NCBI GenBank assembly: GCA_041671645.1
Contig: JBAZBD010000001.1
Coordinates: 799,234-863,233, forward strand
Source of the DNA: Patescibacteria group bacterium
GTDB lineage: Bacteria > Patescibacteriota > UBA1384 > XYA2-FULL-43-10 > 1-14-0-10-43-13
DNA length: 64,000 nt
Reading direction: 5' to 3'
Shown: positions 4,304 to 59,493 of the stretch, in pieces
Layout: the number at the start of each line of letters is the position of its first letter
Numbering within the stretch: position 1 is the stretch's first letter
Notes under the pieces: generated by a model
Database searches by the model: none
Told to the model about the DNA's origin: nothing
What the model saw: the letters and a program-made list of their open reading frames with translations, nothing else
Program-made: the position numbers and the translations under genes

Positions 4304-4380
4304 ATGGTCGGGGATGCGAGACTCGAACTCACGACCTCTCGGTCCCAAACCGAGCGCTCTACCAACTGAGCCAATCCCCG
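4304..4380 (-). tRNA. tRNA-Pro (anticodon TGG), CCA encoded
   Basis: The reverse complement reads CGGGGAT...CTCGG-TTTGGGA-CCGAG...GGTTCGAGTC...ATCCCCG-A-CCA. The acceptor stem is perfect and the cloverleaf is canonical. Confidence 0.9.
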
Positions 4381-4389
4381 AACTAAATT

Positions 4390-4418
4390 ATCTTACATTA
4401 AATCAAGAATTTTTTCAA
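4390..4418 (-). promoter_or_regulatory. Promoter for tRNA-Pro
   Basis: The minus strand reads TTGAAA (4418..4413), 17 nt, TAAGAT (4395..4390), about 9 nt upstream of the mature 5' end. Confidence 0.5.
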
Positions 4419-4446
4419 TCTTTTCGCGATATTTCTTTGGTATGAA

Positions 4447-6402
4447 CTATTCATACCTCAAAGCTTCCATCGGCGAAAGCTTGCTCGCTCGTCTAGCCGG
4501 ATACACACCAGCCAATAATGAGACTAATGTTGTGACCACAATCATTTCTAAGGCAAAGAGCATTGGGGTAGCGAATATATTGAGACTGCCATCAATTGAG
4601 CTAACCTGCATTAAATAATTGATCAGAGCATTGATCGATTCCCCAAAAATCCAAGCGCCAACAACGCCAGCGATAGAACCAGTCAGACCGAAAAGTAAAA
4701 CTTCATACTCAAAAATCTTTTTGATGTCTCGGTTCGTGGCACCGATCGCCTTCATCGTACCGACCTCGTGTGTCCTCTCAAGCAACGAAATGGTCATGAT
4801 ATTGATAATTCCAATCAAGGCAACCATCAGAGCCACACCGCCGATAATACCTAAGATTATTTCTGTGATAAAAAAGATCTTGTCGACTTTCTTGATTAGA
4901 TCAACGACAGAGGTGGTCTGATAGCCAAGGTCGTCGATAGCATCCCTGGCGGCCTCCACATGCTTCCGATCGCTCACTTTCGCCTTGAGAGAGCTATATA
5001 TCGTGGTCTCATTGATCTTGGCCAATTCGTCGATAGGTAGGAATATCGCCGCGACAAGTTCATCATTGGAAACCCCGACGATTTTCTTTTTTGAGGTAGT
5101 TTCGTGAATGCTGGTCAAATCATTTGTATCCTTCGGCACGACCAAAAACGTAAGGTCCACCGTCTTGTTCAAAGCTGATGTCGGCTCCTTGATATCAAAA
5201 TTTTTGAGTGCTGCTTTGGATATCACTATCTCGTCATTTTCATCAAAACCTTCGCCTGCCACGGCGTACACTCCTTCAAAGGAGAGGGCTGACGCCTCGA
5301 GACCATAGGCGATGACCTGCTGAGCGCTGCTATCAATGGCGATTCTGGCAGTCGAAGTGATCGAAGGACTGACTAGGGTCACGTTTTGCACGTTTTTGAG
5401 CTCGAGGAGGGCGGTCTGATCCAGATGTTTAGTCGAATTTTTGTCGACATTTACATTTATCGTAACGAGAGAATCAAGAGAGGCAAGCTGATTTGAGGTA
5501 ATATTTTGCAAACCCATCCCCAAAGAAACGAGGGTGACGATAGACCCAACCCCCAAAGCTACGCCCAAGGCCGTCAGAAGTGTCCGCATCTTTTTGCTTA
5601 TGAAATGAAGTCGGGAAATCCGCAATATTTCCAGAAAACGAAGAGAGCCCCTCTTCTTTGGCACAAAATATTTCAAGCCATCATCTTCTAGATTATCGGG
5701 TGCAAGCACGCTTCGGGTCGCTTCGCTTTTGACAATCTTGCCATCCTTCATATGCAAAATTTTGTCACCGTAGTGAAGAAAATCCGGATTGTGAGTAACT
5801 AAAACGACCGTCCTGCCCCACTTCGTGCTGATGGTTTTGATCATTCTCATGATTTCAAGCCCCGTCGGCTCGTCCAAATTGCCGGTTGGCTCGTCCACTA
5901 GCAAAATCCAAGGATTGGCGACCAGTGCTCTAGCGATGGCGATCCTTTGTTGCTGTCCCCCAGAGAGTTCCACGGGCTTGTGATTCGCGCGGTCGCTCAA
6001 TTCCACCACAGAGAGCAATTCGCTCGCCCGTACATAAGCTTTTTTGCGGTCAACTCCAGAGAGAATCAGAGGCATTGCGATATTATCAATGGCAGAAAGA
6101 GTAGGAATTAAATTAAATTGCTGGAAAACCATCCCGATTTTGGTCCGACGATATTCCGCGAGTTCTGCCTCGGAAAGTGTGTAGATGTTTTGGTCATGCA
6201 CCCAAACTTGGCCGGCGGTCGGCTTGTCCAGTCCTCCCATCAAGCTAAGCAGGGTCGTCTTGCCGCAACCAGACGGACCGTAAATGACAACAAACTCTCC
6301 CGGCATGATATCAGTCTCAACACCCTTCAAGGCTTCAATATATTGATCTCCTACAAAAAAAGTCTTCTCGAGACCGGAAATTTTGATCACTGGTTTAGTC
6401 AT
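4447..6402 (-). CDS. Fused ABC transporter: N-terminal ATPase plus C-terminal FtsX/MacB-type permease
   Basis: Walker A GPSGCGKTT, signature LSGGQQQRIAIARAL, Walker B LLVDEPTGNLD. These are followed by a TM, a large extracytoplasmic domain and 3 C-terminal TMs (FtsX fold). I chose the start at MTKPVIKISGLEKTF (ATG 6402); the longer track ORF (6486) overlaps the upstream gene. Confidence 0.85.
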   Translation of the reverse strand: MTKPVIKISGLEKTFFVGDQYIEALKGVETDIMPGEFVVIYGPSGCGKTTLLSLMGGLDKPTAGQVWVHDQNIYTLSEAELAEYRRTKIGMVFQQFNLIPTLSAIDNIAMPLILSGVDRKKAYVRASELLSVVELSDRANHKPVELSGGQQQRIAIARALVANPWILLVDEPTGNLDEPTGLEIMRMIKTISTKWGRTVVLVTHNPDFLHYGDKILHMKDGKIVKSEATRSVLAPDNLEDDGLKYFVPKKRGSLRFLEILRISRLHFISKKMRTLLTALGVALGVGSIVTLVSLGMGLQNITSNQLASLDSLVTINVNVDKNSTKHLDQTALLELKNVQNVTLVSPSITSTARIAIDSSAQQVIAYGLEASALSFEGVYAVAGEGFDENDEIVISKAALKNFDIKEPTSALNKTVDLTFLVVPKDTNDLTSIHETTSKKKIVGVSNDELVAAIFLPIDELAKINETTIYSSLKAKVSDRKHVEAARDAIDDLGYQTTSVVDLIKKVDKIFFITEIILGIIGGVALMVALIGIINIMTISLLERTHEVGTMKAIGATNRDIKKIFEYEVLLFGLTGSIAGVVGAWIFGESINALINYLMQVSSIDGSLNIFATPMLFALEMIVVTTLVSLLAGVYPARRASKLSPMEALRYE

Positions 6403-6664
6403 CGTTTCTCTTCCTGGCCAAAATTTGTTTGAGTTGATCCTCGATGAGCAATAAATCATGCATTGACTCGAACACTGAGAAAGCAAGAGCGAAAACGGCG
6501 ATGGCCGATATCAGCAAACCAGCTATGACCAATATTTTCTTGAGCAGCGAGGCGTCAGGGAAATTAACCAACAGCGATATGACGAATATCAATATCAAGG
6601 CGGCGATAATAATGCCTATAATCAAGACGAGGTAAGAGCCAAATTTTATTAGAAATCTTTTCAT
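6395..6664 (-). CDS. Small two-TM membrane protein (89 aa)
   Basis: Two hydrophobic helices and a charged C-terminal tail. It overlaps the ABC gene start by 8 nt and starts 2 nt after the upstream stop, so it is translationally coupled. Confidence 0.6.
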   Translation of the reverse strand: MKRFLIKFGSYLVLIIGIIIAALILIFVISLLVNFPDASLLKKILVIAGLLISAIAVFALAFSVFESMHDLLLIEDQLKQILARKRNDD

Positions 6665-6666
6665 AA

Positions 6667-7386
6667 TTAGCTATTAAACCATTTCGCAAAGCCCTCAAAG
6701 GCACGCGACAACGCATCGATAATCACTTGGAAAATCGAAAGATCTTTGGCTGGATTTTTGGTCACAAACATCTGATCATCTGACTCGGCAGAATCAGTCG
6801 CGCCCTTGTTCACCGCCTTGATCTTCAGATGATATGTAGTAGCTGGTTTGAGTTTGTCCAGAATAATGGTATGACTCTGGTTTAGGCTCTCCTCTACCGC
6901 GGTCTCTGAGCCATATGATAGAGTTTCGCCATAAAACACCTGGCCGGTCGAGAGTATTTCTGTCTTGAAGGTCACAATCGCTTGAGATTCCGTCTTGCTA
7001 GTCGCGCCAGCTTCGATTTTGATTGCGGTGACTAAAGGCCTCCCAATCACGTCAATCGCCGAGGCGGAAGTAAACGAAATATTTGTGTTTGACACACGAT
7101 AAATATACGCGGCCAATGCAGTCACGTTTGAATCCATGTAGAAATTCAAATCGGTTTGGCCAAGCGTTGAATATGTTTTGCCTCCGTCCCCGCTCCTCTC
7201 GACGGTGACTGTGCCCTTGCCTTTCGGCCACGACAGAGCAAAGCCCGCCGTGTCCTTGGTCGAAATATTCGAAACTGTCAATCTGTCTTCAGCCGAAACT
7301 AATCCGATCTGGAAGAGGCTTATCAGTGCAGCAAGACCCAGGGCGACTAACCATTTTTTCTTGTTTAGAAACATATCTTTTTCCAT
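6667..7386 (-). CDS. Secreted protein with FN3-like and purple-acid-phosphatase-N-like beta-sandwich domains (239 aa)
   Basis: Signal peptide ending VSAEDR. The pattern AIVTFKT...VFYGETLSYG...HTIILDKLKPATTYHLKIKA parallels the last ectodomain module of the giant protein. It starts 3 nt after the giant ORF's stop. Confidence 0.65.
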   Translation of the reverse strand: MEKDMFLNKKKWLVALGLAALISLFQIGLVSAEDRLTVSNISTKDTAGFALSWPKGKGTVTVERSGDGGKTYSTLGQTDLNFYMDSNVTALAAYIYRVSNTNISFTSASAIDVIGRPLVTAIKIEAGATSKTESQAIVTFKTEILSTGQVFYGETLSYGSETAVEESLNQSHTIILDKLKPATTYHLKIKAVNKGATDSAESDDQMFVTKNPAKDLSIFQVIIDALSRAFEGFAKWFNS

Positions 7387-7389
7387 TTG

Positions 7390-8320
7390 TTATTTATCGC
7401 GATCGATCTCTATCTTCCTTGAAACAGTTTGGAGCTTCTCCTGGGCATCCATATGCGTAGCGTCAGAAGGTTTGTATCCAGCTTTGGCAACCAGGAGTTT
7501 GTATTTGCCCTTTGGCAGGACGGTTGAGAATTTGCCCTTTTCGTTTGTGACTGCTGTTCGAATTAATCTTTTGCCTTCGCCGTCCATGATTCTGACTAAT
7601 GCCAATGAAACTCCCGAGTGATTGACGCTATCTAGGACATTGCCCCAAGGTGAGACTTTGACGAAAGACTTGATGTTGACGTACCAAAGCAGTGGGAAGA
7701 GCAGAGCTGAGACCAGGGTGACCGTGTCACGGTGACTGTGAGCCAAGCTATTCAGGATAGAGACGGTGCCAAAAATCAGGAAGCCGAGGGAAACGTAGAC
7801 CAATACTTTTTCGACAACCCCGATTTTCTCGATAAATGAAAATCTCTTGGCGATGCTCTTGTCGTTCATCGAAAGCAAAATATTTGGTACGATCAGTCCT
7901 TCTTGCTCGCTCTTAACCTCGATGATCTGACCCTTTTTGTAGAAACCTGGGGCTTCAGAAACTTCATATAGATCTTTGGTCACCTCAATCTCATATTTGC
8001 CTGGATCAGCGACAAAGCTGAAGTTGCCTTCGATATCAGAATATGTATTGGCTACCGGCCTCTTTGAGAACGAGCCAGGGAAAGTTTGAGTTAATTTGAA
8101 GAGCGTCAGTTTGGCTTGAGCGATTGGGATATAAGTGCCAACCTCAAGTACTCGGCCCCACTTGCGACGGCTTTTCTTGGTGCCGAGAGAGGCAAGGGCG
8201 AAGATCAAAGAGCGAATGTATTCAGGAAGTGAGAATAGAGTGGCGGCATTGGCCAGTGGAGCGGCGGCGGCAGAGATAATCGCTATGCCAGCGACAGCAG
8301 CGGTGCTGGCTGGAGTAGTT
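7390..8320 (-). other. C-terminal anchor region of the giant protein, where TM helices alternate with two CarboxypepD_reg-like beta-sandwiches
   Basis: An Ala-rich hydrophobic stretch (AAVAGIAIISAAAAPLANAATLF...LIFALASLG) and KKSRRKW are followed by a sandwich (SDIEGNFSFVADPGKYEIEV). Next come two TMs (VLVYVSLGFLIFGTVSIL, LVSALLFPLLWYV) and a second sandwich (VRIMDGEGKRL...NEKGKFSTVLPKGKYKLLVAKAGY). Confidence 0.55.
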
Positions 8321-11300
8321 GTCGATGTTGGTATGCCAAAGACTACGGGTTGGCCTGAATTGTTGACGCCCACGATTTGCATCTGACCAATAATATCGCG
8401 AACTTTCATGGCTGTGCCAGAGAGATTGGAGATAACAGTATCTAGGACCGATTGCTCCTTGAAAATATCCTTGGTGGCGAAAGTAAAGTCTGTCGATTCG
8501 GCAGTTTGGCCATATTTATCTTTGGAAATGACAGCGAAATGGTAAGTTTTGTTGAAGTCCAAATCGGACAAAACAACTGTATGGAAAGAGTTGAGCCCAG
8601 TATCAACCTCGGTCGTGTAAGGGTATGGAGCAGAAGCGCCATATTTGACTTGAGTGGTGGCTGGAACGGTAGTTTTCCAAGTGATGGTGGCTTGAGCCTT
8701 CTCTGACATCAACTCGCTAGGAGTTGCCTTCACGTCTGATATCTCCAAAGTGCCCTCGCCTGGCTCATCTGGCGGCAGGATAACACAGCCAGAACAATCT
8801 ACAACCGTAGTTGTCTGGAACTCAGCTGCCATACTAGCTGTCTGGTTCTTGGCTAGATCAAAAGAGAATACGGAGTAGTTGAATTGGGTATTTGGCGTGA
8901 CTGTGTCGACATAAGAAGCGTAGCCAGAAGCGTCGACCTGGACGCCAGAGGTTGATTCAGAAATTATATTGTTGCCGTTTTTGACGATAGTGTAGCCGAG
9001 CAACCCAGAGCCAGTGTCAGTACTGGCCTTCCAGCGAAGCATCACTCGGTAGTCAGAGTTGACCCGATCAGAGATGTCGAAAGCTTCTACCTTTTCTAAT
9101 GATGATGGGAGGACCGTATCTAAGATGAAGGTAAGTTCCTCTGACCAAGCGAACTGATTGCCTAGATTATCGTTTGCGGCCACTCTGACGTAGTAAGTGC
9201 CGTCGGCCAGAGCACTGGCACCATCCAAGGTCAGAGAATTTGAAGGAGAAGTCAGCGTAGAGAGAGACAGAGCGTCATTTGCGTTGGCGCAGCCAGAAGT
9301 CTTGCAGATCTTGATACTGTAATTTAAAATTCCTGAATTTGTATCTGTTGCGGCTGGCCAAGTCAAAGTGACGGCTGGCTGATTGTAATATTCAATGTTG
9401 TCGATAGTGTTGGTCTTACCAGATACCGTTGGCTTGCCAGGAGCTGTTGGCTTGTCGCTGTCTGGCTTGCCAGAAGCTTGATTGGAGGCGGCTGAATAGT
9501 TGTCGACGCTATCGATAGCTTCAACTTTGTAATAGTATGTGACACCGCTTGTGACGTTGCTATCAATGTAAGTGGCAGTCGAAGATAGAGTCGTATAAGC
9601 GATCTTGTTCGTACCGATATTTGGTGTGAAATCGGCCTCGGTGGAACGGAAGATAGCGACATTGGCGAAGTCTGTGTCGGTCGGATTGACCCAAGAGAGC
9701 GAAACAGAAGCGCTAGCAGAGAGAGCGGTCAGATTCGTCGGTGCGGATGGCGCTGTGATATCTAGGATAATTGATGCCGAAGCAGTCGGCGACTCATCAC
9801 CATCGATATCTTTGACTTTCAGGTAAACCGTCTTCATCCCGTCAACAGTAGGAGCGGCCAAAGTCCATGACTTGCTGGTTGAGAATGTTTCATACTCGCT
9901 GCCAGAGAAATCAGGAGAATTTGAGACCTTCATTTGTGTGCCAGTGCTAGAAGAAAGCGTAAGTGTTTGATCTATTTGATTTGTCCTAGCCGAAGAGAAT
10001 GAGATCGTGCCAGTCGGCGGGAACCATTTGTTGGTATTGCCGAGATTGATCGAATTTGAAGGATCGATGACCGCACTGCTTAGATTCTTGGAGTTTTCGA
10101 CAGAAAGATAGGAAGTAGAGGTCGAGCCCTTTGGATCAATCTTCCATTGATCTGTACCTGTGCCGCCAGATCTACTGAGCGTGATATTTCCAGCAGAAGT
10201 TCCGTTCAAGCTTAATGCACCGTTGACCGTCTGAGTCGTATCAGAAGCGAAACTAATTGTTCGAGCCGCAGACGCTGTGGCAGATAGATTATTGAAAGTG
10301 TTAGATCCAGCGACCGTCTGACCTCCGATGCCATTCAAGGTAATCGTTGATGTGCCAGGATCTACCGTCATGCCAGTGAAATCAATATTCCCGCCGATTG
10401 ATACTGATGACGACTCAAGGTTCAATACGTTGGTGTCGTCAGTCGAACCAGTGTATCTAAAGATTCCATTTGTGAATTCATGAGTACCAGAGCCAAGATT
10501 TGCTGTTCCAACGCCATATACGGGATAGGCAAGATAAAGATTTCTTGCAGTTAGATTGTTGTCAACAGCATTTAACGTTGTCCTCTTGCCAGTAGTTATA
10601 GAATAGGCGTAGATGTCACGAGTCGTCGTCACATCAGATGACAGAGTGATCGCGACATCGTTTGTCACACCGGAATAAGCGACTGACCCTTGGCCGAAGT
10701 TTTGGCCAGCGACCGTGACGTCAGATGATGGTCGATAAACAAGGAAAGTCGAAGCAGTAAAATTTGCGCCTGTGTTGACGACGGCATCGCCGTCTGACTT
10801 GTACATCCTGAACGCATATCTGTTGTCACCGTTCAATGTACCACCCGCGTAAGTGTAGAGAACATTTGAGGTAGTGACCGATGAAATCGCGTTGGTAGTA
10901 TTGCCGTTGTGCGCCAACTTCAGATTATAGAAATCATAGGGAGCCGCAGCATAACCTTTTGATTGCAACGTTCCAGTCCCGGTCAAGTCAACAGTTGAAG
11001 TGCCAGGGGTGACAGTGATATTGCTCGTATCCCAATTCCCGCCAACATTGATCGTTCCTGATCCAAGATCAAGCTTATTGCCGATATTTGAAGCATTGCC
11101 ATGCGAAAGACTGCCGGCAATATTTGTTGTGCCGGATCCTAACTTCAAATAGCCAGGGATTGTAGCGTACTCGTTGGTAGAGGTCGAGCCAATAGTCAAA
11201 TTTTTGCACGTTAGATTGTGCGTACTCATATCGACGTAGCCGGCTGGAGTGGTCGTTCTATCTTTTGCGACTATGACATTGCTGTTGCCAAAGTTGAAAT

Positions 11301-23300: not shown

Positions 23301-26300
23301 CAGAATAAGTAACACGATCGACTGTCCAAGGCGACATCCCACTGGTGTTCGCATTTATCTTCCATTGGCCCGAGCCTGCAGTGCCGTTGAGCTTCATGAC
23401 AATGTTATTCCCAGCCGCGCCCTGTATTGTGAGCGCTCCAGAAATAGTCTGGGTTGAGTCTGCTGCAAAAGATAATGTCTTGCCAGCAGTGGCACAAGTA
23501 AAGCTAGAAGGAGCGTTGTCGCCAGAGATCACCGATTCTTGAGCAGTATCAAATGTCACGACATAAGGCGAGAAAGTGCCGCCAGCCGTCGTAGTCAGAT
23601 TGCGTCCGATTGTAATATCGCTACCTGAGAAATAAGCGCCTGAGCTGATAGCCGCATCGCGCCCAACAACAACTGCATAAGACGGCGATAAATAGCCGTT
23701 CGTCACAGAAAAGTCATTCGATACCGTAAAGCCAGCACTATAACCTACTGTCCCATCACCAGTGTTTGCGTAAATATAATTATAGATAGGCGGAACGTTT
23801 GTAAACGTATATGGATTGTAACTGCTATTAGCAGGAATTGAGCCAATTTTGAAAGTACCATTGGCGTTATTGAAAGTACCGCCAGAGATATTCCAAGTAT
23901 AATCACTATAATATCCGTTTGAGTCAGTTGTAATAGTCAATGTGCCCGAAGTAGATGTAAATGTACCACCGCTCATCGCAAATGATGCGTTTAGCATAGT
24001 AATCGTAGCAGTGTCACCATTAAATGTAGCACCGGTGCTAACCGTAATTTGATAATTTGATAAGGTCAAATTTGAAGTGTTAGCATTGAAAGTACCGCCA
24101 GAGAAAGTAGGAGTAGCCAAGATGTGAGTACCGCTACCAGCATTGAACTCGCCGCCAGCCTGATAAAATGAGCTGGAAAGAGTGAGGTTATTGGCTTCCA
24201 TCTCAACAATGCCATCGTTATACATACCATAGGCGTTTACATTGCCGCCAGGAGTAAACATCGTATACTGAGTGACATAAAGATCATACATAGTACTGAG
24301 AGTCGAACCAGAGACCGAGAAATCAGAGAAACAGCCGCAGTCATCAGCAATCGCTAAATCTGCGTTTGTAATAGCCCCTGCGGTATAGTCACTGTAAAGA
24401 GTGGTCTTGTATCGATACATATTGAGACCAGTTTTGTCTATGGCGGATTCAGGCAAATAGACGATACTGCCGGAATTGTAGCTCGGATCATTATCAATAA
24501 AGATGGTGACTGGTTTGCCAGCAACAAGCTCGACCCCGCTAAAGGAAAAAGTACCACCGGAGCCAGTGACGCCCGACATCTTTCCGCCACCGTTTGAGGT
24601 AATGGAAATCGGGATATCAGCGCCCAAAACGCTGCCGCCGATACCATCGTAAATTGTGCCGGAAATCGTATTGCCGCCAGAATATGTAACTGTTAATTTT
24701 GGATCGAGTGCCGTACCATCATTTTCTGCAAAGTAGCCATAGAAGTAGACACTATCATAATCGGCATTTATGGTTGGCTGACTATCTGCAGCATCAGCAG
24801 TGATTCTAAGACCAAGCTTCGTAACACCAGATGTACTAATAGCTGCTAGACCGCTTGCATTCATCGCGAAATCGTTGTATCCCATATCGTTGTAACTGGC
24901 GTACGGAATCGCAGATGCAAATGCAGTTGTTCCGAAAGTGTCGTAATCCGATGCTTGAAGCGAAGTGTTGCTAGAAGGGTTCGAGGAATACAGACCCAAA
25001 CTCGAATTCCAACCCGAAGGGTCACCCATCTTGTATGCGCCATATACGGAAAAATTGGCAGCTGAGATAGTCGCGGTGTTTGGGATGCTAGAAGTATCAA
25101 AGAGAAACGCACTTCTTGAGACGTAAGCCCAAGCAGCGTTGTTGCCAGCGGCGATTGCGGCCATATCACCGCTTGTTCCGTCATCAGCAGCGCTATATCC
25201 GCCAGACCTTATGGAAGCCCAGTCCCAATTGCTCCTACTGCTGTAAGTGTACCCATCAACAGACGTGACTTCAGTATGAGTATTTGGATAATAAATAACA
25301 TCAGTATCAATCTTCATGTCAGACTTTGGCGCTGTCTCTTGCCAGACAAAGCTTGAATCCAAGCTGCCTTCGATCTTTTTGGCTTCGACTGCGACAACCT
25401 TGTCTTGGCCAGTCTCATCTTTGACGACTTCACCAGTTGAGGCATTTACATCAAAAGCTTCTGGCTTGTCTCTGAATTTGAGATCGTCTTTGACGACGAC
25501 AGTCTTGTTTTCTTTGGTCTCTGGGTCGGTGACGACAACACTTCCTTCTTTCCCGCCATCAGTCTTGGTCACATTCCACTGGAAATTCTTCGGCGCGTCT
25601 TCGCCCTTGATTGTCTTCCAGAGACGTACACCATACTCAGAGATGTCAAATTCAAATTTGAGGTTACCGTCATCGGTTGTGACCTGGCTATCCTCAGCCA
25701 AAATCTGTGGTGCAATCCATTTGGAAAGCGCGTTTCTGGTATCTTCGGCCATCTTCTGGTCAGGAGTGTTGATATCGGCCCAAGCCACTTTGCTGTCAGT
25801 TCCCTTTGATTTTGATAAAACTGGATTGCCATCGACGTCTTTCAGGGTCACCGTATATTTGTCGCCAGTTTGTCGAGACTCGATTTCATAGCCAATCTTG
25901 TCTTTGAAAACTTTGACAGTAGAGGGCATCTGGTCAAAAAGCACATATTCGGGCGTATCGATGGAATGATTTGGGTTGATATCCTTCCAGCTTGAGTCAG
26001 CCTTGGCATAATCTTCTTTGTAGTGGACAAGGCCGGTATAGGACTCTAGAGTCTTGGTGCCGTTCTTGTTGTCGATTGTCTTGGTAGTCTCTGTGCGATC
26101 AGCGACAATCTCATTTGGATTGGCCAAAATCTGGTCAGTGCCGTTGTTTGAAATAGTAGTATTCTTCTGGCCCTCTTCTTTGGCGATGACAAATGAATAT
26201 TCCTGGCTCCATGGCGACCAAGCGCCAACAGAGTCCTGATAGCGAACGCGAGAGTAGTAGGTTCCTTCGGTGAGTAGAGTTGTTAGCTTGATATTTGTCA

Positions 26301-27273
26301 GTTCGTCTTTGGGCTCTGTCTTTGTCTGATCGAAGATCGGAGAAGCATAATCGCCAGATTTGGTCGAAATCTGCCACTCTGAAGCGTTTTGCGTGTCATT
26401 GTCGATATCAAGATAAGAGCTAGCGCTTAGGGTCTGAGTATTTCTAAACAAGCTTTTGTCAGCAGTGAACGAGAGACCGGTTGGTGTATTTGGAAGTCTA
26501 GAGTAGAGCAAGGTCAAAGAGTGCAAAACAGGCGAAAGACTAGCGTCGCCAGTCGAAAGGGTCAAGCGTATGTAGAGAGTCTCGGAATCGGCCATCTCAA
26601 GGACATCGCTCGAAAACAAAATGTTGTCAGTAGAAAATTCCTTTTTGACAGCACCGCCGTTGAGTACTTCGCTGGCCTCGATCGAAAGCCAATCGACAAA
26701 CTCACCCTTGGCCGGGGTGTAGGCCAAAATCGCGTTGCCAGATTCCTGGTACTGATTTTGTGTAATATCTGAGTCTAACTTCGCACTTTGGGAAAGAGAG
26801 AGAGAATTGGGGTTATCGGCTGTCGAAAGTCCAGAAATAGTCCAACTCTGCCAAGCTTCCTGTGTGCCCCAAGCCACTTGTGAAGAGGCGAAAGTGCGAA
26901 TGACGCTGGTAGCAAAAACGGAGGTGAAGATAAGGGCCACGATGCCAGACATGTAGCCGGAGAGTGAAACCCAGTGAATTGCAGAAGCAAACGGGCTCAT
27001 GTGCCACTTGTAGTACCATCTGAATTTCATCCGAAGATTGTTGTGGAGGGTGGCGAAGACTGGAAAAGTAACCTTGGTCGAACGCTGGATCAAAATGATT
27101 TCACGTTCAAGCTGAGCTTCCTTCTTTTGGAGCTCTTTTTGCTTCTCCGCGACAATCACCTCTTCTTTGGTGAGACCTTCAATCGCTGCCTTGTCCTGAG
27201 GCAACAAAGTGTACTTCTCCAAAGGTGCTTTTTTGGAAAAATGACTGCGGAAAAATTTGCGTAGGCCCTTCAA
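7390..27273 (-). CDS. Giant membrane-anchored surface protein (6,627 aa), putative adhesin or attachment fibre
   Basis: Uninterrupted 19,884-nt ORF with AGGAGG 4 nt upstream of a TTG start. N-terminal K/E-rich segment plus a TM (IHWVSLSGYMSGIVALIFTSVFA). Modules recognised by pattern: FN3 arrays, 7 YVTN repeats, a DUF285/BspA LRR block, InlB-B-repeat-like modules, two G/T/N-rich beta-helix-like blocks, and C-terminal TMs with CarboxypepD_reg-like sandwiches. Confidence 0.9.
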   Translation of the reverse strand: MKGLRKFFRSHFSKKAPLEKYTLLPQDKAAIEGLTKEEVIVAEKQKELQKKEAQLEREIILIQRSTKVTFPVFATLHNNLRMKFRWYYKWHMSPFASAIHWVSLSGYMSGIVALIFTSVFATSVIRTFASSQVAWGTQEAWQSWTISGLSTADNPNSLSLSQSAKLDSDITQNQYQESGNAILAYTPAKGEFVDWLSIEASEVLNGGAVKKEFSTDNILFSSDVLEMADSETLYIRLTLSTGDASLSPVLHSLTLLYSRLPNTPTGLSFTADKSLFRNTQTLSASSYLDIDNDTQNASEWQISTKSGDYASPIFDQTKTEPKDELTNIKLTTLLTEGTYYSRVRYQDSVGAWSPWSQEYSFVIAKEEGQKNTTISNNGTDQILANPNEIVADRTETTKTIDNKNGTKTLESYTGLVHYKEDYAKADSSWKDINPNHSIDTPEYVLFDQMPSTVKVFKDKIGYEIESRQTGDKYTVTLKDVDGNPVLSKSKGTDSKVAWADINTPDQKMAEDTRNALSKWIAPQILAEDSQVTTDDGNLKFEFDISEYGVRLWKTIKGEDAPKNFQWNVTKTDGGKEGSVVVTDPETKENKTVVVKDDLKFRDKPEAFDVNASTGEVVKDETGQDKVVAVEAKKIEGSLDSSFVWQETAPKSDMKIDTDVIYYPNTHTEVTSVDGYTYSSRSNWDWASIRSGGYSAADDGTSGDMAAIAAGNNAAWAYVSRSAFLFDTSSIPNTATISAANFSVYGAYKMGDPSGWNSSLGLYSSNPSSNTSLQASDYDTFGTTAFASAIPYASYNDMGYNDFAMNASGLAAISTSGVTKLGLRITADAADSQPTINADYDSVYFYGYFAENDGTALDPKLTVTYSGGNTISGTIYDGIGGSVLGADIPISITSNGGGKMSGVTGSGGTFSFSGVELVAGKPVTIFIDNDPSYNSGSIVYLPESAIDKTGLNMYRYKTTLYSDYTAGAITNADLAIADDCGCFSDFSVSGSTLSTMYDLYVTQYTMFTPGGNVNAYGMYNDGIVEMEANNLTLSSSFYQAGGEFNAGSGTHILATPTFSGGTFNANTSNLTLSNYQITVSTGATFNGDTATITMLNASFAMSGGTFTSTSGTLTITTDSNGYYSDYTWNISGGTFNNANGTFKIGSIPANSSYNPYTFTNVPPIYNYIYANTGDGTVGYSAGFTVSNDFSVTNGYLSPSYAVVVGRDAAISSGAYFSGSDITIGRNLTTTAGGTFSPYVVTFDTAQESVISGDNAPSSFTCATAGKTLSFAADSTQTISGALTIQGAAGNNIVMKLNGTAGSGQWKINANTSGMSPWTVDRVTYSDSNNLNSRPIAPTNSTASGSNNTNWLGSHISGTAYQGIGQGNVGSGQNVSASVNGGAKQTMATDGNGAFDFVAGGVTAGTVITIFFEDGNYSAGNIVTVAAGSSDITGLSLYSYLVSLTYEDSGPMTNTILATADNCSDANGKILFSVDGSNVLSTSYSLHIPASKVYTPGASVGSSGAYIYGTINATATFTSSDMGSFYVESGAVFNAGTGTVTVGGLYLNGGTFNSNSSTLVLNGYSTTIISGTFNSNTATVTIKSYNFYLYGGTFNAPAQVLTLDANDVATDFLFDMSGGGTFVNNDGAVWINNINSANTYYVKCGSNQFYQLSANSANGTVVTQDTLLVEHSLNITLANTFNAYGYNVETKHFAQDTGTFSAPNGTMKVSGDFIRDGGTFSNNYGTVELNSASLAQVVGGSTEFYNFTMTTSTARTISFNPGTNQTVTGQWTATGIADNLLTLQRNGTGAQWEITPSTSMDNQWTVDYVSVSNSKNNAANPISPTNWTKGVNVTNWDVLPGCVWDGGGTGNNWSTAENWTLDTVPDAACDVVFDSTSTKASTLDSGFTAHIKSLSINTGYTDTVTLGADLNDDGALNLAEGTLSAGNYTINIGGSWNNTGGTFTKGTSTVNFNGTAAATVASNSNDFYNITVAGQAGTISTPYAWIANSGATTTTKIDTSSNAVTTHTIGAAEFGVAVDNSGFIWQTNRSNGTLTKINASTNSVDASITIGSDPYGVAIDSNGFVWVASGTNNVAYKINPTTNAIAATVNVGARAYGIAADSSGFVWVANFNSNTVSKINATTDTVVATITVGTQPAGVAVDLNGFVWVPNYGTSDVSKINPTTNTVVATVSAGTNAFGVAADANGFVWVSNLGTNTVTKINTATNAVAATVTVGSAPCGVAVDASGFVWVTNSSANSVSKINGSTNVVAATINTGLAPYSLGDFTGYAYKKIVLSQGGTGSITLSDALVASNNLTVSSGTFTSGANAVTVGSFIQTDGTFAAPSTTMSVANDFTHTAGTFTHNSGTVVFNGGDSSIQDISGDTTFSAVTIQPGATTTKTLKFEASKTQTIAGALTVSGASGRVISLNSSSDGSTWSIDPQSTRAISYASVKDSINANATAIYTDNSGSNVTSAGNNVNWFASAPPNAASTVAITSIDSTLFTVTWTDNSSDETGFKVFTAAGNADCSAASYSGTPDYTTAADATSQAITGKTINTQYCAKVIATNADGDSDPAFAAPKYTLANTPDAPTVTAYDWSAASGNNMAAVINVNSNPAGTEFALSCNATPDSWLQGDGTCGASKVWKTKVNWETGTVNYLKNLTSNTLYSVKALARNGDTTETSASSAGTATSAPAQPASLTHTANTASQISWDWADVAGASSYRLLKSSDDSDVGSPSASAYDQGSLSANTQYTNYVRAYNGVLGQASSTASAYSSIEAASGITFGTIATDSIQVSATGTFTNLSVGSSGLYITKSAGTGTGFASWNTNNNTLTNTGLSPNTQYSYTAQARNGDGETTAATDSISKYTLAAAPDAPTLAASSASVINIKLTDNSSTTYAIAVSADGGSTWNYVKHADGTNQASEDWQNYAAWGGASGFDNVSLSPNVQYTYKVKARNGDNTETAFSSTAAKYTLANVPSAPTVDATSSSSLTVKINQNSNPAGTNYAVYNDTLSKYVQADGSSDTSAVWQDYTTWGGASGVTNTGLTANTEYTYKVKAKNGDNVETALSSGTAQTTVDVAPTEPNTVAIGTLTTTGFTVTWTDASSNETGFKVYTAAGNADCSAASYSGTPDYTTAAGAISQAITSKSINTQYCAKVIATNAIGDSAPAYAAPKYTLAAAPDAPTLAASSASVINIKLTDNSSTTYAIAVSADGGSTWNYVKHADGTNQASEDWQNYAAWGGASGFDNVSLSPNVQYTYKVKARNGDNTETAFSSTAAKYTLANVPGTPTFGTVTSTTIPVLIAQNSNPSNTTYAIKVVYGATTKYVQANSTLGDSAVWQAYATWGSSKTVTGLTANTLYTFSVAATNGDSVATAYSATADQSTLAVYTLTYNSGANGSVIGSSPQTVDHGSSGSEVVATPAANYHFVKWSDNDSTNPVRTDTNVTANITTTASFAIDTHTLAYSAGANGSIVGTTPQTIDHGASGSEVTATPAANYHFVSWSDDVMTAARTDSNVAGDIAVTASFAIDTHTLTYSAGANGSIVGTTPQTVDHGSSGSEVTATPAANYHFVSWSDDVMTAARTDLNVADNISVTATFAINTYTLTYNAGSNGSVVGTSPQTVDYGANGSQVTATPAAGYYFVDWSDANTTAARTDTNVTVDITVTANFALQFLSRWDTSKTSSGSSTATQIHLPLESTGTYNFIVDWGDSSTSTITTWNQAETTHTYASGGIYDLKIGGTITGFRFNNAGDKLKLSQISQFGPLRLGNSDGYFSGTKNLKITATDVLNTTGTTTMKNSFRDSGIDTVPSMNSWDMSAVTDMYCMFESSSLFNQDISSWNTGAVTSMYAMFYNAFVFNQNIGSWNTTNVINMAYMFESAWAFNQNISSWNTGSVTTMREMFWNNSAFNQNISNWNTGAVTNMNQMFYSAAAFNQNLASWNVVNVTDMTNMFSSSALSNANYSNILIGWSAQAVKSNVTLGAATKKYTLGAAADGRAHLVSAHTWTITDGGPSAFVLTYSAGSGGSIVGITPQTVDYGANGSEVTATPAANYHFTSWSDGVLTAARTETNVITDKSVTASFAIDTHTLTYSAGANGSVVGSTPQTVNYGANGSQVTATPAANYHFVSWSDDVMTAARTDSNVAGDIAVTASFALDAPASATGVTITPTSSTTFNVTWTDNSSIETGYKVYTADGNADCSAASYSGTPDTTTSADAVSQAIASKSVNTQYCAKVVATNSGGDSAPAYAAPKYTLANVPTFTTVAGDYSDADLWHLDTTINASANPAGTNYYIQYSTNDGAGAGNFYDPNAMAWQTETTYLFKKDKDNVDLAANTQYWMKVKAKNGDNVETIYTSTSVADVTPPAAPTALNITNICTTKATTTWTAATGADSYTVSYGTDTAATNIGTLTTATTSKQITGLSNTTTYYWKASATSTANGTGPYAAPSSFETSNCGVESPDDFAGSAASTTQINWTWSDITSEETGYKVEDSAHTSLSGNLDAGSTSYNETPLSANTGYTRHVNVYNGGGSQDSNSDTVYTLAAVPGQPTVTTLSSSRIRITVDKNGNPNANTRYAIAVSADAGSTWNYVKNADGTTQVSEDWQLYADWGGDSGFANTGLTKNTNYIYKIKARNGDNVATDFGATNNTTTLDNFSVTISSDGSGSGSLDQVTQIVDAGADVTTTATAAASSDFVSWTGCDTVATNICYLTDVSADRSITAVFTIKTYTITINEAGTGTGDLDQVTQDVNYGANLTVVATADISSTFTGWSGDATGTGDASFTNITANKTITATFTIKTYTITINTTGTGMGDLDQATQTVNYGANLTVVATPAASSTFAGWSGDATGTGDASFTNITANKTITATFTIRSYTVTISKAGNGTGDLDQSTQVVTYGANLTVAATPAVSSDFTGWSGDAAGTGSAALTNITADKTITATFTLKTYTISSSAGSNGAISPLGDNLANYGTSPEYTITPSDGYYISNVVVDGSAISGTLPSSYTFTNVTATHSISVSFAANNTCVWDGQAADDNWSSADNWTANIIPSATCDVIFDATSTKDSTLDASFTSHIKSLSVNTGYSGTISANTTLNDDGDFTLNAGTFTANAQTLNIAGSLTMTADPTAVFNEGTSTINFNPTTTGKTITTNGQVLGNLIFNGVDAVIDPNVTLLNNNISLLANHTLTAGWTFQDNVSAQSLTANAGTLVDGGKSVNIAGDIIIANKVGVLASTGVWTQSSSGNIANPDMHNTFGSLVAAGSGITSTMTAGVSVGLGSGSAGAFTVGPGTLMGIGKAVIVYSRSNDSVTVNNLTADSRLGVLAIYPQIADMTQKAITLPSNFATTFSFQQDPTGILTATGNFNFGNSNVIVAKDRTTTPAGYVDMSTHNLTCKNLTIGSTSTNEYATIPGYLKLGSGTTNIAGSLSHGNASNIGNKLDLGSGTINVGGNWDTSNITVTPGTSTVDLTGTGTLQSKGYAAAPYDFYNLKLAHNGNTTNAISSVTTSNVLYTYAGGTLNGDNRYAFRMYKSDGDAVVNTGANFTASTFLVYRPSSDVTVAGQNFGQGSVAYSGVTNDVAITLSSDVTTTRDIYAYSITTGKRTTLNAVDNNLTARNLYLAYPVYGVGTANLGSGTHEFTNGIFRYTGSTDDTNVLNLESSSVSIGGNIDFTGMTVDPGTSTITLNGIGGQTVAGSNTFNNLSATASAARTISFASDTTQTVNGALSLNGTSAGNITLSRSGGTGTDQWKIDPKGSTSTSYLSVENSKNLSSAVIDPSNSINLGNTNKWFPPTGTISFSSARTNQIDQTLTLSSSTGTQMKVSNSPDFSGSEYETFSTSKSWTLAAPTVDGMKTVYLKVKDIDGDESPTASASIILDITAPSAPTNLTALSASASVSLSWVNPTDTDFANVAIFRSTEADFTPNIGTNKIAYTTLSSTATYIDSNVTSGVTYYYKVEAIDSVDNYSAASNQASGKPDSDKPTAPGKPTVSGKTNTIDNIEYYNQPAVTLTWPAATDTNSGILNYSIKICKTSGCANANDALSLSTLTSPSNSLTLDGASALADGTYYVRVAANDNLGNQFAWSEELTFILDTVLPSSLEKVEAFDISDRVNSDYRVMLRWKASTDTGSGLLGYTIVKNGNNIISESTSGVQVDASGYASYVDTVTPNTQFNYSVFSFDLAKNQTASMAAEFQTTTVVDCSGCVILPPDEPGEGTLEISDVKATPSELMSEKAQATITWKTTVPATTQVKYGASAPYPYTTEVDTGLNSFHTVVLSDLDFNKTYHFAVISKDKYGQTAESTDFTFATKDIFKEQSVLDTVISNLSGTAMKVRDIIGQMQIVGVNNSGQPVVFGIPTSTTTPASTAAVAGIAIISAAAAPLANAATLFSLPEYIRSLIFALASLGTKKSRRKWGRVLEVGTYIPIAQAKLTLFKLTQTFPGSFSKRPVANTYSDIEGNFSFVADPGKYEIEVTKDLYEVSEAPGFYKKGQIIEVKSEQEGLIVPNILLSMNDKSIAKRFSFIEKIGVVEKVLVYVSLGFLIFGTVSILNSLAHSHRDTVTLVSALLFPLLWYVNIKSFVKVSPWGNVLDSVNHSGVSLALVRIMDGEGKRLIRTAVTNEKGKFSTVLPKGKYKLLVAKAGYKPSDATHMDAQEKLQTVSRKIEIDRDK
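12320..13420 (-). repeat. In-frame tandem array of about 72-aa (216-bp) InlB-B-repeat-like modules
   Basis: Four 72-aa units (TIKTYTITIN...GWSGDATGTGDASFTNITANKTITATF) plus one longer variant. The units starting at 12757 and 12973 share about 90 nt with one mismatch at a 216-bp offset. Confidence 0.8.
15440..15925 (-). repeat. DUF285/BspA-type leucine-rich repeat block within the giant protein
   Basis: Six consecutive repeats of about 26 aa of the form FNQNISSWNTGxVTxMxxMFxxAxx. Confidence 0.75.
17488..17828 (-). repeat. Perfect 341-bp direct repeat, copy 1 (FN3 module)
   Basis: Base-for-base identical to 18412..18752 by manual comparison. The 924-bp offset equals 308 codons. Confidence 0.9.
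18412..18752 (-). repeat. Perfect 341-bp direct repeat, copy 2 (FN3 module)
   Basis: Identical to 17488..17828. Both encode KYTLAAAPDAPTLAASSASVINIKLTDNSSTTYAIAVSADGGSTWNYVKHADGTNQASEDWQNYAAWGGASGFDNVSLSPNVQYTYKVKARNGDNTETAFSSTAAKYTLANVP. Confidence 0.9.
20485..21336 (-). repeat. Seven YVTN-type beta-propeller repeats within the giant protein
   Basis: A repeat of about 42 aa, xVxKINxxTNxVxATIxVGxxPxGVAVDxxGFVWVxN, occurs seven times. Confidence 0.75.
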
Positions 27274-27312
27274 CTTCCCTCCTGCGACAACCAGTCTTAT
27301 TATTATGAGTAT

Positions 27313-27341
27313 ATTTTAACAAGAGAAGTGAACTCGTTCAA
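27313..27341 (-). promoter_or_regulatory. Promoter of the giant gene
   Basis: The minus strand reads TTGAAC (27341..27336), 17 nt, TAAAAT (27318..27313), about 35 nt upstream of the AGGAGG/TTG start. Confidence 0.5.
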
Positions 27342-27429: not shown

Positions 27430-28158
27430 TTAGTAAATTTTCTTTTGCAAATTTTGACGGATTTTCCACGAATCAACTATCATTTTGAGCCCATCTTTCA
27501 ATGGGTTGACAGTCGAATGTGGATCATCGTGCCAGGTGATCCCCTCCTCCTTTATTTTGTATCCTAATTTTTTGGCAATAGCTAAAACTTCAATATCGAA
27601 AGAGAAGTCAAATATGGTCAGCTTCTCGAAAATCGCTCCGGCCGCCTCTTTCGAAAATAATTTGAAACCGCACTGTGTGTCTTTGATCCCAGGCGTCACA
27701 AGGGCTTGGATCATCCAGTTCAAAGCTCGGCTGCCCGCTCTTCGAGTGAATGACTGTGGGATGGCTAATTTGCCACCTTTGCAGTATCTGGAGCCGATGA
27801 CGACATCGTATTTATCGATATGGGCAAGAAGTTTGTCGACCTGTTCGATTGGGGTAGAATTATCAGCATCGGCGAATAACACATACTGGCCCTTTGCCAA
27901 TTTGATTCCGTCCTGCACTGCACCACCCTTCCCGCGGTTCTGTTCGCCTTCGTAGATCACCAGATTCGGAATTCTGTCCACAAAATGTTCGGCGGAGCCA
28001 ACCGTGTCATCAGGGGATGCATCAATTGCAACTATCGTTTCGACGATGAAGTCTTTGGTTTTAACATATTTTTCTATCGCTTCCAGAATAACGTGGATCC
28101 GTTTTTCTTCACGATATGCCGGAATCACAATTGATAAATAGATTTTCTCGTCCATCAA
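27430..28158 (-). CDS. GT2 glycosyltransferase, polyprenyl/dolichyl-phosphate hexose synthase-like (Dpm1/Ppm1-like)
   Basis: LSIVIPAYREEKRI..., IVAIDASPDDT, NRGKGGAV and FADADNSTP (DxD) fit the soluble GT-A fold. 242 aa. Confidence 0.8.
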   Translation of the reverse strand: MMDEKIYLSIVIPAYREEKRIHVILEAIEKYVKTKDFIVETIVAIDASPDDTVGSAEHFVDRIPNLVIYEGEQNRGKGGAVQDGIKLAKGQYVLFADADNSTPIEQVDKLLAHIDKYDVVIGSRYCKGGKLAIPQSFTRRAGSRALNWMIQALVTPGIKDTQCGFKLFSKEAAGAIFEKLTIFDFSFDIEVLAIAKKLGYKIKEEGITWHDDPHSTVNPLKDGLKMIVDSWKIRQNLQKKIY

Positions 28159-56001: not shown

Positions 56002-56061
56002 ATTGATTTAGGATTTGAGAATACTATATCATAAACGAAGGGATTAATAAGGAATACCAAT

Positions 56062-56538: not shown

Positions 56539-56559
56539 GCCCTAATTTACAGAAGAACC

Positions 56560-56587
56560 AAAAAAGTCGGCCTAGCCGTCTTTTTTG
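56560..56587 (+). terminator. Weak intrinsic terminator after grpE
   Basis: AAAAAAGTCGGC-CTA-GCCGTCTTTTTT, a short stem with one mismatch. Confidence 0.4.
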
Positions 56588-56664
56588 ATAGGGGGTCTTG
56601 ATCCGTCCTTCGTTAAAACTACGGAGGATCAACCCCTCCGTAGCTCCTGCGGAGCAAAGGGGGG

Positions 56665-56695: not shown

Positions 56696-56727
56696 AGATA
56701 GTATTATTTTATTAACAAGGAGTTCAT

Positions 56728-59408: not shown

Positions 59409-59493
59409 AGCAGTAATATATAAGCTTATAAGTCCGATAAGCGCTCTGCTACTTGCTTACCAACTTAGGATTTATAGCTAATTGCTTATTTTT

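Follow-up and report, generated by a model that had tools for sequence, protein, structure and literature searches.

A giant, most likely adhesin-like surface protein encoded beside a conserved MacB-type ABC cassette in a Berkelbacteria-like patescibacterium

ATP-binding cassette (ABC) proteins of the MacB or type VII superfamily (MacB, LolCDE, FtsEX, BceAB and HrtBA) work by mechanotransmission on clients located outside the cytoplasm or in the outer leaflet of the membrane, the movements driven by ATP being passed on to their extracytoplasmic domains and to a groove in the outer leaflet. The tasks described for them range from efflux and the extraction of lipoproteins to the control of cell-wall hydrolases and the sensing of antibiotics. 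Within this group, the clients extracted are lipoproteins in the case of LolCDE and haem in that of HrtBA, and BceAB acts on bacitracin-undecaprenyl pyrophosphate, while BceS-type partners with two transmembrane (TM) segments sit beside BceB in the membrane. No member is known to have a transmembrane substrate channel or to carry its substrate through the membrane. A stretch of 64,000 nucleotides from contig JBAZBD010000001.1 (assembly GCA_041671645.1), referred to here at its full length as the window, encodes a protein of this superfamily as the last of four tightly packed genes on the minus strand, from position 27,273 to 4,447. It is preceded by genes for a giant protein of 6,627 amino acids, a fibronectin type III (FN3) protein of 239 amino acids and a protein of 89 amino acids with two TM segments. 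Judged from sequence comparison with related loci, FN3 domains followed by an amphipathic helix appear to form a shared tag, new to this work, which links client proteins to the MacB cassette, hinting at a new means by which such cells keep hold of giant surface proteins or handle them.

A large part of bacterial diversity belongs to the Patescibacteria, most of which are thought to live attached to other cells. The window derives from a Berkelbacteria-like patescibacterial metagenome-assembled genome, the relatives of its MacB-type protein being labelled Candidatus Berkelbacteria, and the source bacterium is probably symbiotic. Little is known about the display and control of very large surface proteins in this group. 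Proteins of more than 5,000 residues have been reported in Patescibacterium danicum (PMC11809585) and giant genes have been described in Omnitrophota (bioRxiv 10.1101/2023.11.21.568195); like the giant of the window, the reported proteins reach several thousand residues and combine adhesin-type modules of FN3 or beta-helix kind with TM anchors and a fast-evolving middle. In these reports giant genes are tied to type II or type IV secretion-like loci or to no partner (PMC11809585; bioRxiv 10.1101/2023.11.21.568195), and neither of them mentions a MacB/FtsX partner or a C-terminal FN3-helix tag. The open-access literature searched held no precedent for a link between MacB/FtsX proteins and giant or surface proteins in Patescibacteria, an absence that does not amount to proof. 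Should the link be true, it would supply a searchable signature of the surface-protein repertoire (a hidden Markov model (HMM) of the tag, an HMM of the small protein and the MacB clade), a class of clients new to the type VII ABC superfamily and a testable hypothesis for the coupling of ATP to an external structure in an ultra-small monoderm cell. If it reflects operon economy only, the locus would still be a well-documented case of a giant adhesin-like gene whose termini are conserved and whose middle is shuffled rapidly.

The MacB-type gene (4447..6402, minus strand, ATG at 6402) encodes 651 residues that form an N-terminal nucleotide-binding domain (NBD), a first TM segment, MacB_PCD and TM segments 2 to 4 of the FtsX permease, with Pfam matches to ABC_tran (PF00005, 1.2e-32), MacB_PCD (PF12704, 1e-17) and FtsX (PF02687, 5e-20). 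A longer open reading frame (ORF) of 679 residues with a TTG start does not represent the gene, the ATG being the true start. The ATPase motifs GPSGCGKTT (Walker A), LSGGQQQR (signature), LLVDEPTGNLD (Walker B) and VTHN (H-loop) are intact and conserved across 76 homologues, and these motifs, together with a four-TM FtsX permease carrying MacB_PCD between its first and second TM segments, place the protein in the type VII superfamily. It aligns end to end with the solved MacB structures 5nik, 5gko and 5lil (residues 4-649 with residues 3-646 of Escherichia coli MacB 5nik, 3e-74). An earlier note on this DNA had drawn attention to a fused MacB; the fusion is real, but it is the normal MacB layout and nothing special. 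Among NCBIfam models, the protein does not reach the cut-offs of the MacB equivalog NF007826 (297 against 966 bits), the FtsE equivalog TIGR02673 (202.9 against 264.85 bits) or the LolD equivalog TIGR02211 (218.8 against 307.75 bits), with LolD among the best matches of its NBD; by its score against the MacB model, orthology to E. coli MacB is rejected. The protein is identical to MFA6963894.1, and source annotations describe it as being of macrolide or lipoprotein-export type.

The MacB proteins of the MacAB-TolC systems of E. coli, A. baumannii and A. actinomycetemcomitans (5nik, 5gko and 5lil) share this full-length architecture and its intact ATPase motifs. Here, however, no MacA/HlyD or TolC partner accompanies the protein (HlyD and OEP families are absent from the window ORFs and from the Pfam lists of 13 related loci), the host is presumably monoderm, and the protein has a clade-specific two-TM partner and a genetic link to giant tagged surface proteins. 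FtsEX with EnvC, PcsB, CwlO or RipC provides a functional model, in which the periplasmic domain of an FtsX-fold protein grips a helical partner and nothing is transported. The helical element of those partners is a long coiled coil on a hydrolase or activator domain, whereas the proposed partner here is a short amphipathic helix following FN3 domains; in addition, NBD and permease are fused, and the window has no EnvC/PcsB-type gene. LolCDE resembles the present proposal in being a type VII ABC system whose target is an anchor sunk into the outer leaflet, but neither the giant nor the 239-residue protein has a lipobox or acyl anchor, no LolA-like acceptor is present, the LolD cut-off is missed as given above, and the fused transporter is probably homodimeric.

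Type I secretion systems (T1SS) for giant adhesins and related clients (LapA-LapBCE, SiiE, HlyA-HlyBD-TolC) likewise have the gene of a giant repetitive adhesin beside that of an ABC protein, and their clients carry an uncleaved C-terminal element. In contrast, the permease of the window has the FtsX/MacB fold, the clients bear N-terminal Sec-type signals, the window contains no membrane fusion protein (MFP) or outer membrane factor (OMF) gene, and RTX repeats, looked for in the giant and 239-residue proteins together with the LPXTG motif (as LPxT[GAN]) and the lipobox, were not present in either; GGxGxD has a single match across the 6,627 residues of the giant. The logic of a C-terminal module that ties unrelated large proteins to one machine is shared with LPXTG/sortase, PEP-CTERM/exosortase and the C-terminal domain of the type IX secretion system (T9SS), the last of which is also a beta-sandwich. 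Unlike these systems, the locus has no sortase-type enzyme and no cleavage motif, the machine being an ABC mechanotransducer, and the tag proteins match no NCBIfam sorting-domain model. Sortase and SLH domains have no Pfam match in the window, and the absence of HlyD, TolC, sortase, SLH and pilus genes from these 64 kb, claimed in the earlier note, is borne out and extends, for MFP, OMF, sortase and SLH, to the neighbourhoods of the relatives' cassettes. Finally, the 89-residue protein, with two TM segments, a loop of about ten residues and a cytoplasmic helix, resembles the membrane part of BceS-type partners of BceAB; this is a resemblance only; a kinase domain is missing, and similarity was not seen at the sequence level. 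The locus is classed here as a type VII ABC mechanotransducer whose client class and accessory subunit are both new.

Gene layout and conservation of the cassette

The giant ORF (7390..27273, minus strand) comprises 19,884 nt without internal stop codons, or 31% of the window, and starts with a TTG that follows AGGAGG at a distance of 4 nt (AGGAGG-GAAG-TTG) and agrees with the aligned N-termini of homologous large proteins. The FN3 gene (6667..7386, minus strand) begins 3 nt (CAA) after it, the 89-residue gene (6395..6664, minus strand) follows after 2 nt (TT), and the MacB-type gene overlaps the latter by 8 nt (ATGACTAA). The coordinates, lengths, gaps, overlap and start codon context given in the earlier note proved exact. 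For the FN3 gene, the public Logan call (P0125) begins at Met5 and gives 235 residues, and NCBI and JGI carry the 239-residue form (MFA6963896.1). The only sizeable intergenic gap of the unit lies upstream of the giant gene and contains the site TTGAAC-17-TAAAAT with a TG-extended -10 element (27313..27341, minus strand). It had been taken for the gene's own promoter; the site is there, but it is a 9/12 match whose kind is no more frequent than in shuffled controls, and it is plausible through its position only. Inside the FN3 and 89-residue genes no promoter-like site was found on the minus strand, and just downstream of the MacB-type gene lies a tRNA-Pro gene (4305-4380) with a promoter-like site of its own. 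The spacing is most sensibly read as that of an operon whose genes may be coupled in translation; the earlier view of the four genes as one unit agrees with their conservation, but the co-translation attached to it was an overstatement.

Relatives were found through the genomic context of MacB homologues at falling identity, which gave 13 loci and two more, all of one lineage. A homologue search with the C-terminal 478 residues of the giant had returned four weak FN3 matches without the query itself, so that relatives of the giant were sought via neighbouring genes; genome contigs scanned with an alignment of the C-terminal anchor, whose patterns were too narrow, gave one locus, on the contig of L004. 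Metagenome contigs scanned with an alignment of the permease yielded, among the matches listed, mostly distant FtsX/MacB loci, which served as a negative control, and three informative loci (L011, L012 and L013).

A small two-TM gene lies directly upstream of the MacB gene in 13 of 13 distinct loci, across MacB identities of 42-100%; in the window, this is the gene encoding the [FY]P[ED]A loop, immediately before the fused MacB and overlapping it by the 8 nt mentioned. An adjacent large protein, of at least 2,500 residues where the gene is complete, is encoded in 10 of the 13. Besides the window, these comprise L003/L004 (MacB 59% identical, preceded by genes for 7,072, 231 and 97 residues), L005/L006 (58%; 4,313, 242 and 93 residues), L009 (57%; 5,255 and 1,588 residues in a split gene, then 231 and 100), L011 (57%; a partial giant, its gene cut by the contig end, then 238 and 113), L007 (54%; at least 2,502, then 91), L093 (53%; 4,367 and 91), L095 (44%; 2,552 and 96), L094 (42%; 2,959, an inserted gene for 120 residues, then 93) and L008 (43%; several surface-protein genes, an 83-residue secreted peptide, then 101). 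The large protein of L008 has 1,782 residues and is encoded further upstream than in the other loci. L091/L092 (59%) has no giant gene and encodes 239 and 112 residues upstream of MacB, and L001/L002 (59%) has the small gene only. All giant-gene relatives found are linked to small-TM and MacB genes, and the refuting outcome named in the earlier note, giant homologues that are never linked to these partners, did not occur. MFP and OMF genes are absent from all of the cassette loci.

The outer neighbours vary from locus to locus (tRNA-Pro, L10/L12, LepA, RecG, a DnaB-type ATPase, AbiEii and RecJ), with the exception of downstream genes common to L003 and L009. A syntenic block of genes for ComEC, a metallo-beta-lactamase-fold protein, GrpE, DnaK, an unknown protein, DnaJ, a second unknown protein and holin_4_2 occurs at 54562-61350 of the window and at 14288-21965 of L007; it lies about 50 kb from the cassette in the window and about 2 kb from it in L007, and therefore the cassette has moved relative to housekeeping blocks while staying intact. 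Among the matches listed, about 48 distant MacB/FtsX loci had enough upstream DNA for comparison, and a large upstream ORF was present in two of them and the small protein in none. The fused MacB of L096, 33% identical, has neither a small protein nor a large upstream ORF beside it. L012 and L013, with permeases 32-33% identical, have separate ATPase and permease genes and no small protein, and their ABC genes directly follow genes for large proteins of 2,896 residues and, cut by the end of the locus, more than 1,923 residues. The cassette of this Berkelbacteria-like lineage is conserved, its invariant core being the small-TM gene and the MacB gene, and the giant and FN3 genes accompany this core often but not always.

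The 89-residue protein has two TM segments joined by a loop of about ten residues ([FY]P[ED]A..KK), a conserved FE and an acidic helical tail, and gave no match in Pfam, NCBIfam or PDB sequence searches. An HMM of the small protein has a match in each of the 13 distinct loci with a MacB of this clade and, among the matches listed, none of about 79 distant FtsX/MacB loci. The small two-TM protein is specific to this MacB clade.

Several further features of the related loci have been recorded. In L009 (1-8933), the two giant ORFs of 5,255 and 1,588 residues overlap by 4 nt, which may stem from a frameshift or a sequencing error, unless the gene is truly split. The 120-residue gene inserted between the large and small-TM genes of L094 (9171-9533) belongs to the 23S_rRNA_IVP family of four-helix bundles, and a second gene of this family is found near the cassette of L091 (19483-19842); such genes may be mobile or associated with diversity-generating elements. 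In L008, the most divergent cassette, several secreted proteins with similar C-termini are encoded ahead of it (4368-9701), among these surface genes one for a 314-residue protein with a C-terminal TM anchor; the set may resemble the WxL/DUF916 cell-surface clusters of Gram-positive bacteria. The ATPase of the split ABC pair in L013 (5756-7060) has a K/E-rich C-terminal extension of about 200 residues, absent from the fused MacB proteins; this extension might stand in for the acidic tail that the small protein has in the cytoplasm.

The FN3-helix module and the giant protein

The first part of the tag in the window is located near the C-terminal end of the giant (residues 6172-6298; 8380..8760, minus strand) and comprises a domain termed FN3-A, with a match to Pfam Pur_ac_phosph_N (E = 2.8e-5), and amphipathic helix 1 (KEQSVLDTVISNLSGTAMKVRDII). 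Conserved counterparts of this segment are present in L003 and L009 and, towards the C-terminus, in the large proteins of L005, L007, L093, L094 and L095. The remainder is found in the 239-residue protein, which has a signal-peptide-like N-terminus (...LVSA/ED), two domains termed FN3-B and FN3-C and a helix at the extreme C-terminus, and which is covered by no NCBIfam model. An AlphaFold2 (AF2) model of this protein (mean predicted local distance difference test (pLDDT) 76.6) shows two beta-sandwich domains and a helix at residues 218-238, and Foldseek matched the model to tandem FN3 structures. The strongly amphipathic terminal helix 2 (DLSIFQVIIDALSRAFEGFAKWFNS; 6670..6744, minus strand) carries the motif ALxxAFxGFxxW and has a hydrophobic moment of 0.59, a positive mean hydrophobicity and interfacial aromatics (F, F, W, F); in the giant ectodomain, no stretch of 22 residues has a moment above 0.44.

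The two parts are joined in other genomes. The large proteins of L005, L007, L093, L094 and L095 end in the order FN3-A, helix 1, FN3-B, FN3-C, helix 2, which is that of giant residues 6172-6298 followed by the separate 239-residue protein (28-45% identity over about 200 residues); the 239-residue protein is 39-45% identical to the last 210 or so residues of the large proteins of L005, L007 and L093. The earlier note had described a separate FN3 protein, and the gene is indeed separate here, but its product is homologous to the C-terminal module of a large protein in five relatives and would thus be a detached copy of that module. In the window, accordingly, the tag is split, FN3-A and helix 1 residing on the giant and FN3-B, FN3-C and helix 2 on the 239-residue protein, and in the giants of the window, L003 and L009 helix 1 is followed by a TM/CarboxypepD_reg anchor of their own. 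By the Rosetta-stone argument, this fission and fusion of the module across relatives suggests that the giant and 239-residue proteins work together.

A tag-bearing client is adjacent in the window, L003, L005, L007, L009, L011, L091, L093, L094, L095, L012 and L013. The position of the tag was checked in about 155 sequences, consisting of the best 150 library representatives of the 15,745 library proteins in which a profile search found this FN3 type at E < 1e-3, plus earlier matches. Among these, the complete module with its helix at the extreme C-terminus was found in 17 large proteins (464-4,313 residues) and as a standalone protein of about 235-265 residues in 13 cases. The helix subtype AFxGFxxW accompanies the fused MacB and small protein, and the large proteins of L012 and L013, beside split ABC genes, end in FN3 and a different helix subtype (...NLEDTFSWL... 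and ...NFTSSFSFI...), so that tag subtype co-varies with transporter subtype. The 83-residue secreted peptide of L008, encoded just ahead of small-TM and MacB, has a tag-like amphipathic helix at its end (...KLSLWQRIIQVIVGLFR). Viral contigs scanned with the tag alignment gave no match.

With regard to the giant itself, a simple hydropathy scan located one TM segment near the N-terminus (residues 106-129), preceded by a K/E/R-rich segment, and three near the C-terminus (residues 6322-6348, 6490-6511 and 6520-6538), in agreement with an earlier claim of anchoring at both ends. The N-terminal module (residues 1-129; 26887..27273, minus strand), with a predicted cytoplasmic part and the TM segment as putative signal-anchor, is ordered as LLPxDKxAI, a coiled K/E segment, IQxST...HNxLRM+xxWYY+WH...HW and the TM segment. 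These first 130 or so residues are conserved in the large proteins of L005 (P0178), L094 and L095, and Pfam and PDB sequence searches with the module gave no significant match. The C-terminal anchor (residues 6320-6627; 7393..8316, minus strand) consists of a TM segment, a CarboxypepD_reg-like domain, two further TM segments and a second CarboxypepD_reg-like domain, and is about 50% identical among the giants of the window, L003 and L009. The assignment of CarboxypepD_reg to two stretches interleaved with TM segments, as had been proposed earlier, is due to Pfam (4.6e-14, above the cut-off), an AF2 model of the C-terminal 463 residues from the single sequence having a pLDDT of 35; a profile of the anchor found nothing significant among PDB sequences.

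The ectodomain (residues 130 to 6320, approximately) is built of modules known from adhesion proteins, and the inventory agrees well with that of the earlier note. At least 16 FN3 modules occur in the protein, 14 of them in two blocks recognised by a self-built HMM and others, FN3- or Ig-like, near the C-terminus, which makes the original count of more than 15 about right. Flg_new_2 (the InlB B-repeat) is present in 11 copies in three blocks, a DUF285/PARCEL block is found, and a YVTN/NHL-type propeller is matched by TIGR02276 at 2e-25, with seven repeats visible in the sequence. The motif CVWDG...NW opens two blocks, as stated before, at residues 1840 and 4991; the heads of these putative beta-helix blocks are 47% identical, and neither block matches a Pfam family. 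With more than 4,000 residues, TM anchoring and a build of adhesion modules, the giant fits the profile of patescibacterial giant adhesin-like proteins and is most likely an adhesin-like surface protein anchored by TM segments at both ends, in a topology that is predicted. A role of the ectodomain in adhesion or host contact is suggested by its domain types and by the lineage. Conserved ends and a freely shuffled middle, the pattern apparent among the large proteins, would be expected if the ends serve biogenesis and anchoring and the middle serves binding.

Possible roles of the MacB-type machine

The reading preferred here, for which confidence and doubt are about evenly balanced, is that the adhesin-like giant is exported by Sec and anchored at either end of its chain, and that a dedicated MacB-type mechanotransducer docks or handles the tag that it bears next to the membrane. 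Sec would insert the giant, with the conserved N-terminal cytoplasmic domain and TM segment serving as signal-anchor, and the ectodomain of about 6,200 residues would lie outside the cell, its C-terminal end returning to the membrane to form a long loop or a doubly tethered fibre, held in this genome by the giant's own TM/CarboxypepD_reg anchor. The FN3-helix tag would then adjoin the membrane close to the periplasmic domain of MacB, and a MacB dimer with the two-TM accessory protein would constitute a membrane machine that binds the tag on the outer face, via that periplasmic domain or a groove in the outer leaflet. Hydrolysis of ATP in the cytoplasm would be coupled to the tag by mechanotransmission, in a manner comparable to FtsEX and the helical hairpin of EnvC/PcsB, and work directed in this way would hold the end of the fibre nearest to the membrane, set its position or remodel it, the machine not being a channel for the giant. 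The N-terminal TM segment of the giant and the signal-peptide-like start of the FN3 protein make an ABC exporter unnecessary for their passage across the membrane. The suggestion of the earlier note that the giant is assembled or extruded by MacB finds no support, given the Sec-type signal-anchor of the giant, the cleavable-type signal peptide of the FN3 protein and a MacB without a channel; MacB more probably acts at the membrane's outer face.

A wider version of this reading, put forward tentatively and with more doubt than confidence, regards the FN3-helix element as a new class of C-terminal sorting or anchoring tag borne by large surface proteins in Patescibacteria, with the MacB-type protein and the two-TM subunit as its dedicated receptor and motor. 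Such a system would be distinct from sortase, exosortase, T1SS, T9SS and Lol, and would use ATP hydrolysed in the cytoplasm to hold, tension or reposition a giant host-contact fibre on a cell lacking an outer membrane.

Several points weigh against docking by a dedicated machine. Physical contact between the tag and MacB is something that we infer, and in this genome the giant already has a C-terminal TM anchor, docking being unneeded for anchoring. The topology comes from a hydropathy scan only, and the CarboxypepD_reg-like domains could lie inside or outside the cell. FN3 domains of Pur_ac_phosph_N-like type abound in large proteins and, taken alone, are unspecific, the specificity of the tag seeming to reside in the terminal helix and its position. 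The sample is small, drawn from one lineage and reached through MacB, with tagged genes away from MacB left uncounted. L091 keeps the FN3, small and MacB genes without a giant, L001 keeps the small and MacB genes only, and the function of MacB and the small protein may consequently not need the giant, or their clients may be encoded elsewhere.

Other explanations of the same locus have been weighed against docking. One of them, less probable than docking yet a serious competitor, is a release similar to that performed by LolCDE, in which the helix would become an in-plane anchor in the outer leaflet after Sec export and MacB would extract it with ATP; the freed tagged end, or the 239-residue protein, would then extend, pass to the wall or S-layer, or be shed. 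The genomic linkage speaks for release as much as for docking, the moment, hydrophobicity and aromatics of helix 2 fit a surface-seeking helix, extraction of outer-leaflet clients is common among type VII ABC systems of monoderm and diderm cells, and both the 239-residue protein and the 83-residue peptide of L008 are soluble apart from the helix. It fits poorly with the permanent TM anchor that comes right after helix 1 in the giants of the window, L003 and L009, with clients lacking a lipobox or lipid anchor, and with the failure to identify an analogue of the LolA acceptor. Docking is preferred over release because the helix-terminated and TM-anchored architectures both keep the tagged end at the membrane. 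A competitor of equal weight is that MacB and the small protein constitute a general efflux, antimicrobial-peptide-resistance or envelope-lipid system that shares an operon with the surface-protein genes and does not interact directly with their products. In its favour, MacB-family pumps are widespread and act on many substrates, the annotations are of macrolide or lipoprotein-export type, L001/L002 have the small and MacB genes without a nearby giant or FN3 gene, and L091 has no giant. Such independence is at odds with an adjacency that 10 of 13 loci keep although their flanks are extensively rearranged and that recurs independently with a split ABC in L012 and L013, with the co-variation of tag and transporter subtypes, with the tight gene packing and 8-nt overlap, and with the occurrence of such neighbours in none of 46 distant MacB/FtsX loci among the matches listed.

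Export of the T1SS kind, in which the C-terminal helix would be an uncleaved signal read in the cytoplasm and the ABC protein would export the giant and the FN3 protein, is very improbable. The adjacency of a giant adhesin-like gene and an ABC gene, and a conserved signal-like element at the extreme C-terminus, are formally reminiscent of LapA/LapB and HlyA/HlyB. The idea is nonetheless largely refuted by the fold, which is of FtsX/MacB type without a substrate channel and not that of an ABC_membrane exporter, and by the N-terminal Sec-type signals or anchors of the clients; MFP/OMF genes are also absent from the window and loci, RTX repeats are absent from the giant and FN3 proteins, and the tag of the window giant is internal, with TM segments after it. 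Least probable of all is that the giant ORF is an artefact of mis-assembled repeats or a chimeric join. The gene is repetitive, and it contains one near-identical internal DNA repeat, a direct pair of 300 nt at 98% identity (17477-17776 and 18401-18700) lying 924 nt apart and in frame, which encodes more than 100 identical residues (about residues 2855-2960 and 3163-3268) and is a recent duplication of a three-FN3 unit; the copy number of this 924-nt unit is the sole place where short-read assembly could have erred. The homologous gene of L009, moreover, is split into ORFs of 5,255 and 1,588 residues. Against an artefact, the 19,884 nt hold no stop codon, all other DNA repeats of the ORF are at most 91% identical, the locus lies on a contig of 867,751 bp, and both termini are homologous to proteins of 7,072, 4,313, 4,367, 2,959 and 2,552 residues from independent assemblies. 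The overall risk of mis-assembly is low; there is a single near-identical repeat, and comparable ORFs occur in independent assemblies.

Surroundings of the cassette

The rest of the window is of housekeeping character, with genes for RuvABC, DnaK/DnaJ/GrpE, ComEC, enolase, iPGM, glycosyltransferases and LytR. Directly ahead of the giant gene (27430-31500, minus strand) lie genes for a GT2 protein (242 residues), a PMT_2/GT-C mannosyltransferase-like protein (612 residues) and a GT2-like protein (511 residues). Serine and threonine make up 25% of the giant, and these glycosylation genes could serve its O-glycosylation. The three genes were considered as members of the cassette and rejected, as AbiEii and RecJ are encoded upstream of the large genes of L094 and L095, respectively. 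A PMT_2 gene is also found directly upstream of the distant fused MacB in L096.

Beyond the tRNA-Pro gene, two ORFs of 554 and 594 residues are found on the minus strand (56-1720 and 1823-3607); the former has no family match and the latter has weak matches of alpha/beta-hydrolase or lipase-like kind, and both may be further envelope or secreted proteins. Two additional minus-strand genes encode candidate extracytoplasmic proteins, one of 601 residues with two PsbP-like regions (51804-53609) and one of 455 residues with a bacterial Ig-like (Big_13) domain (62451-63818).

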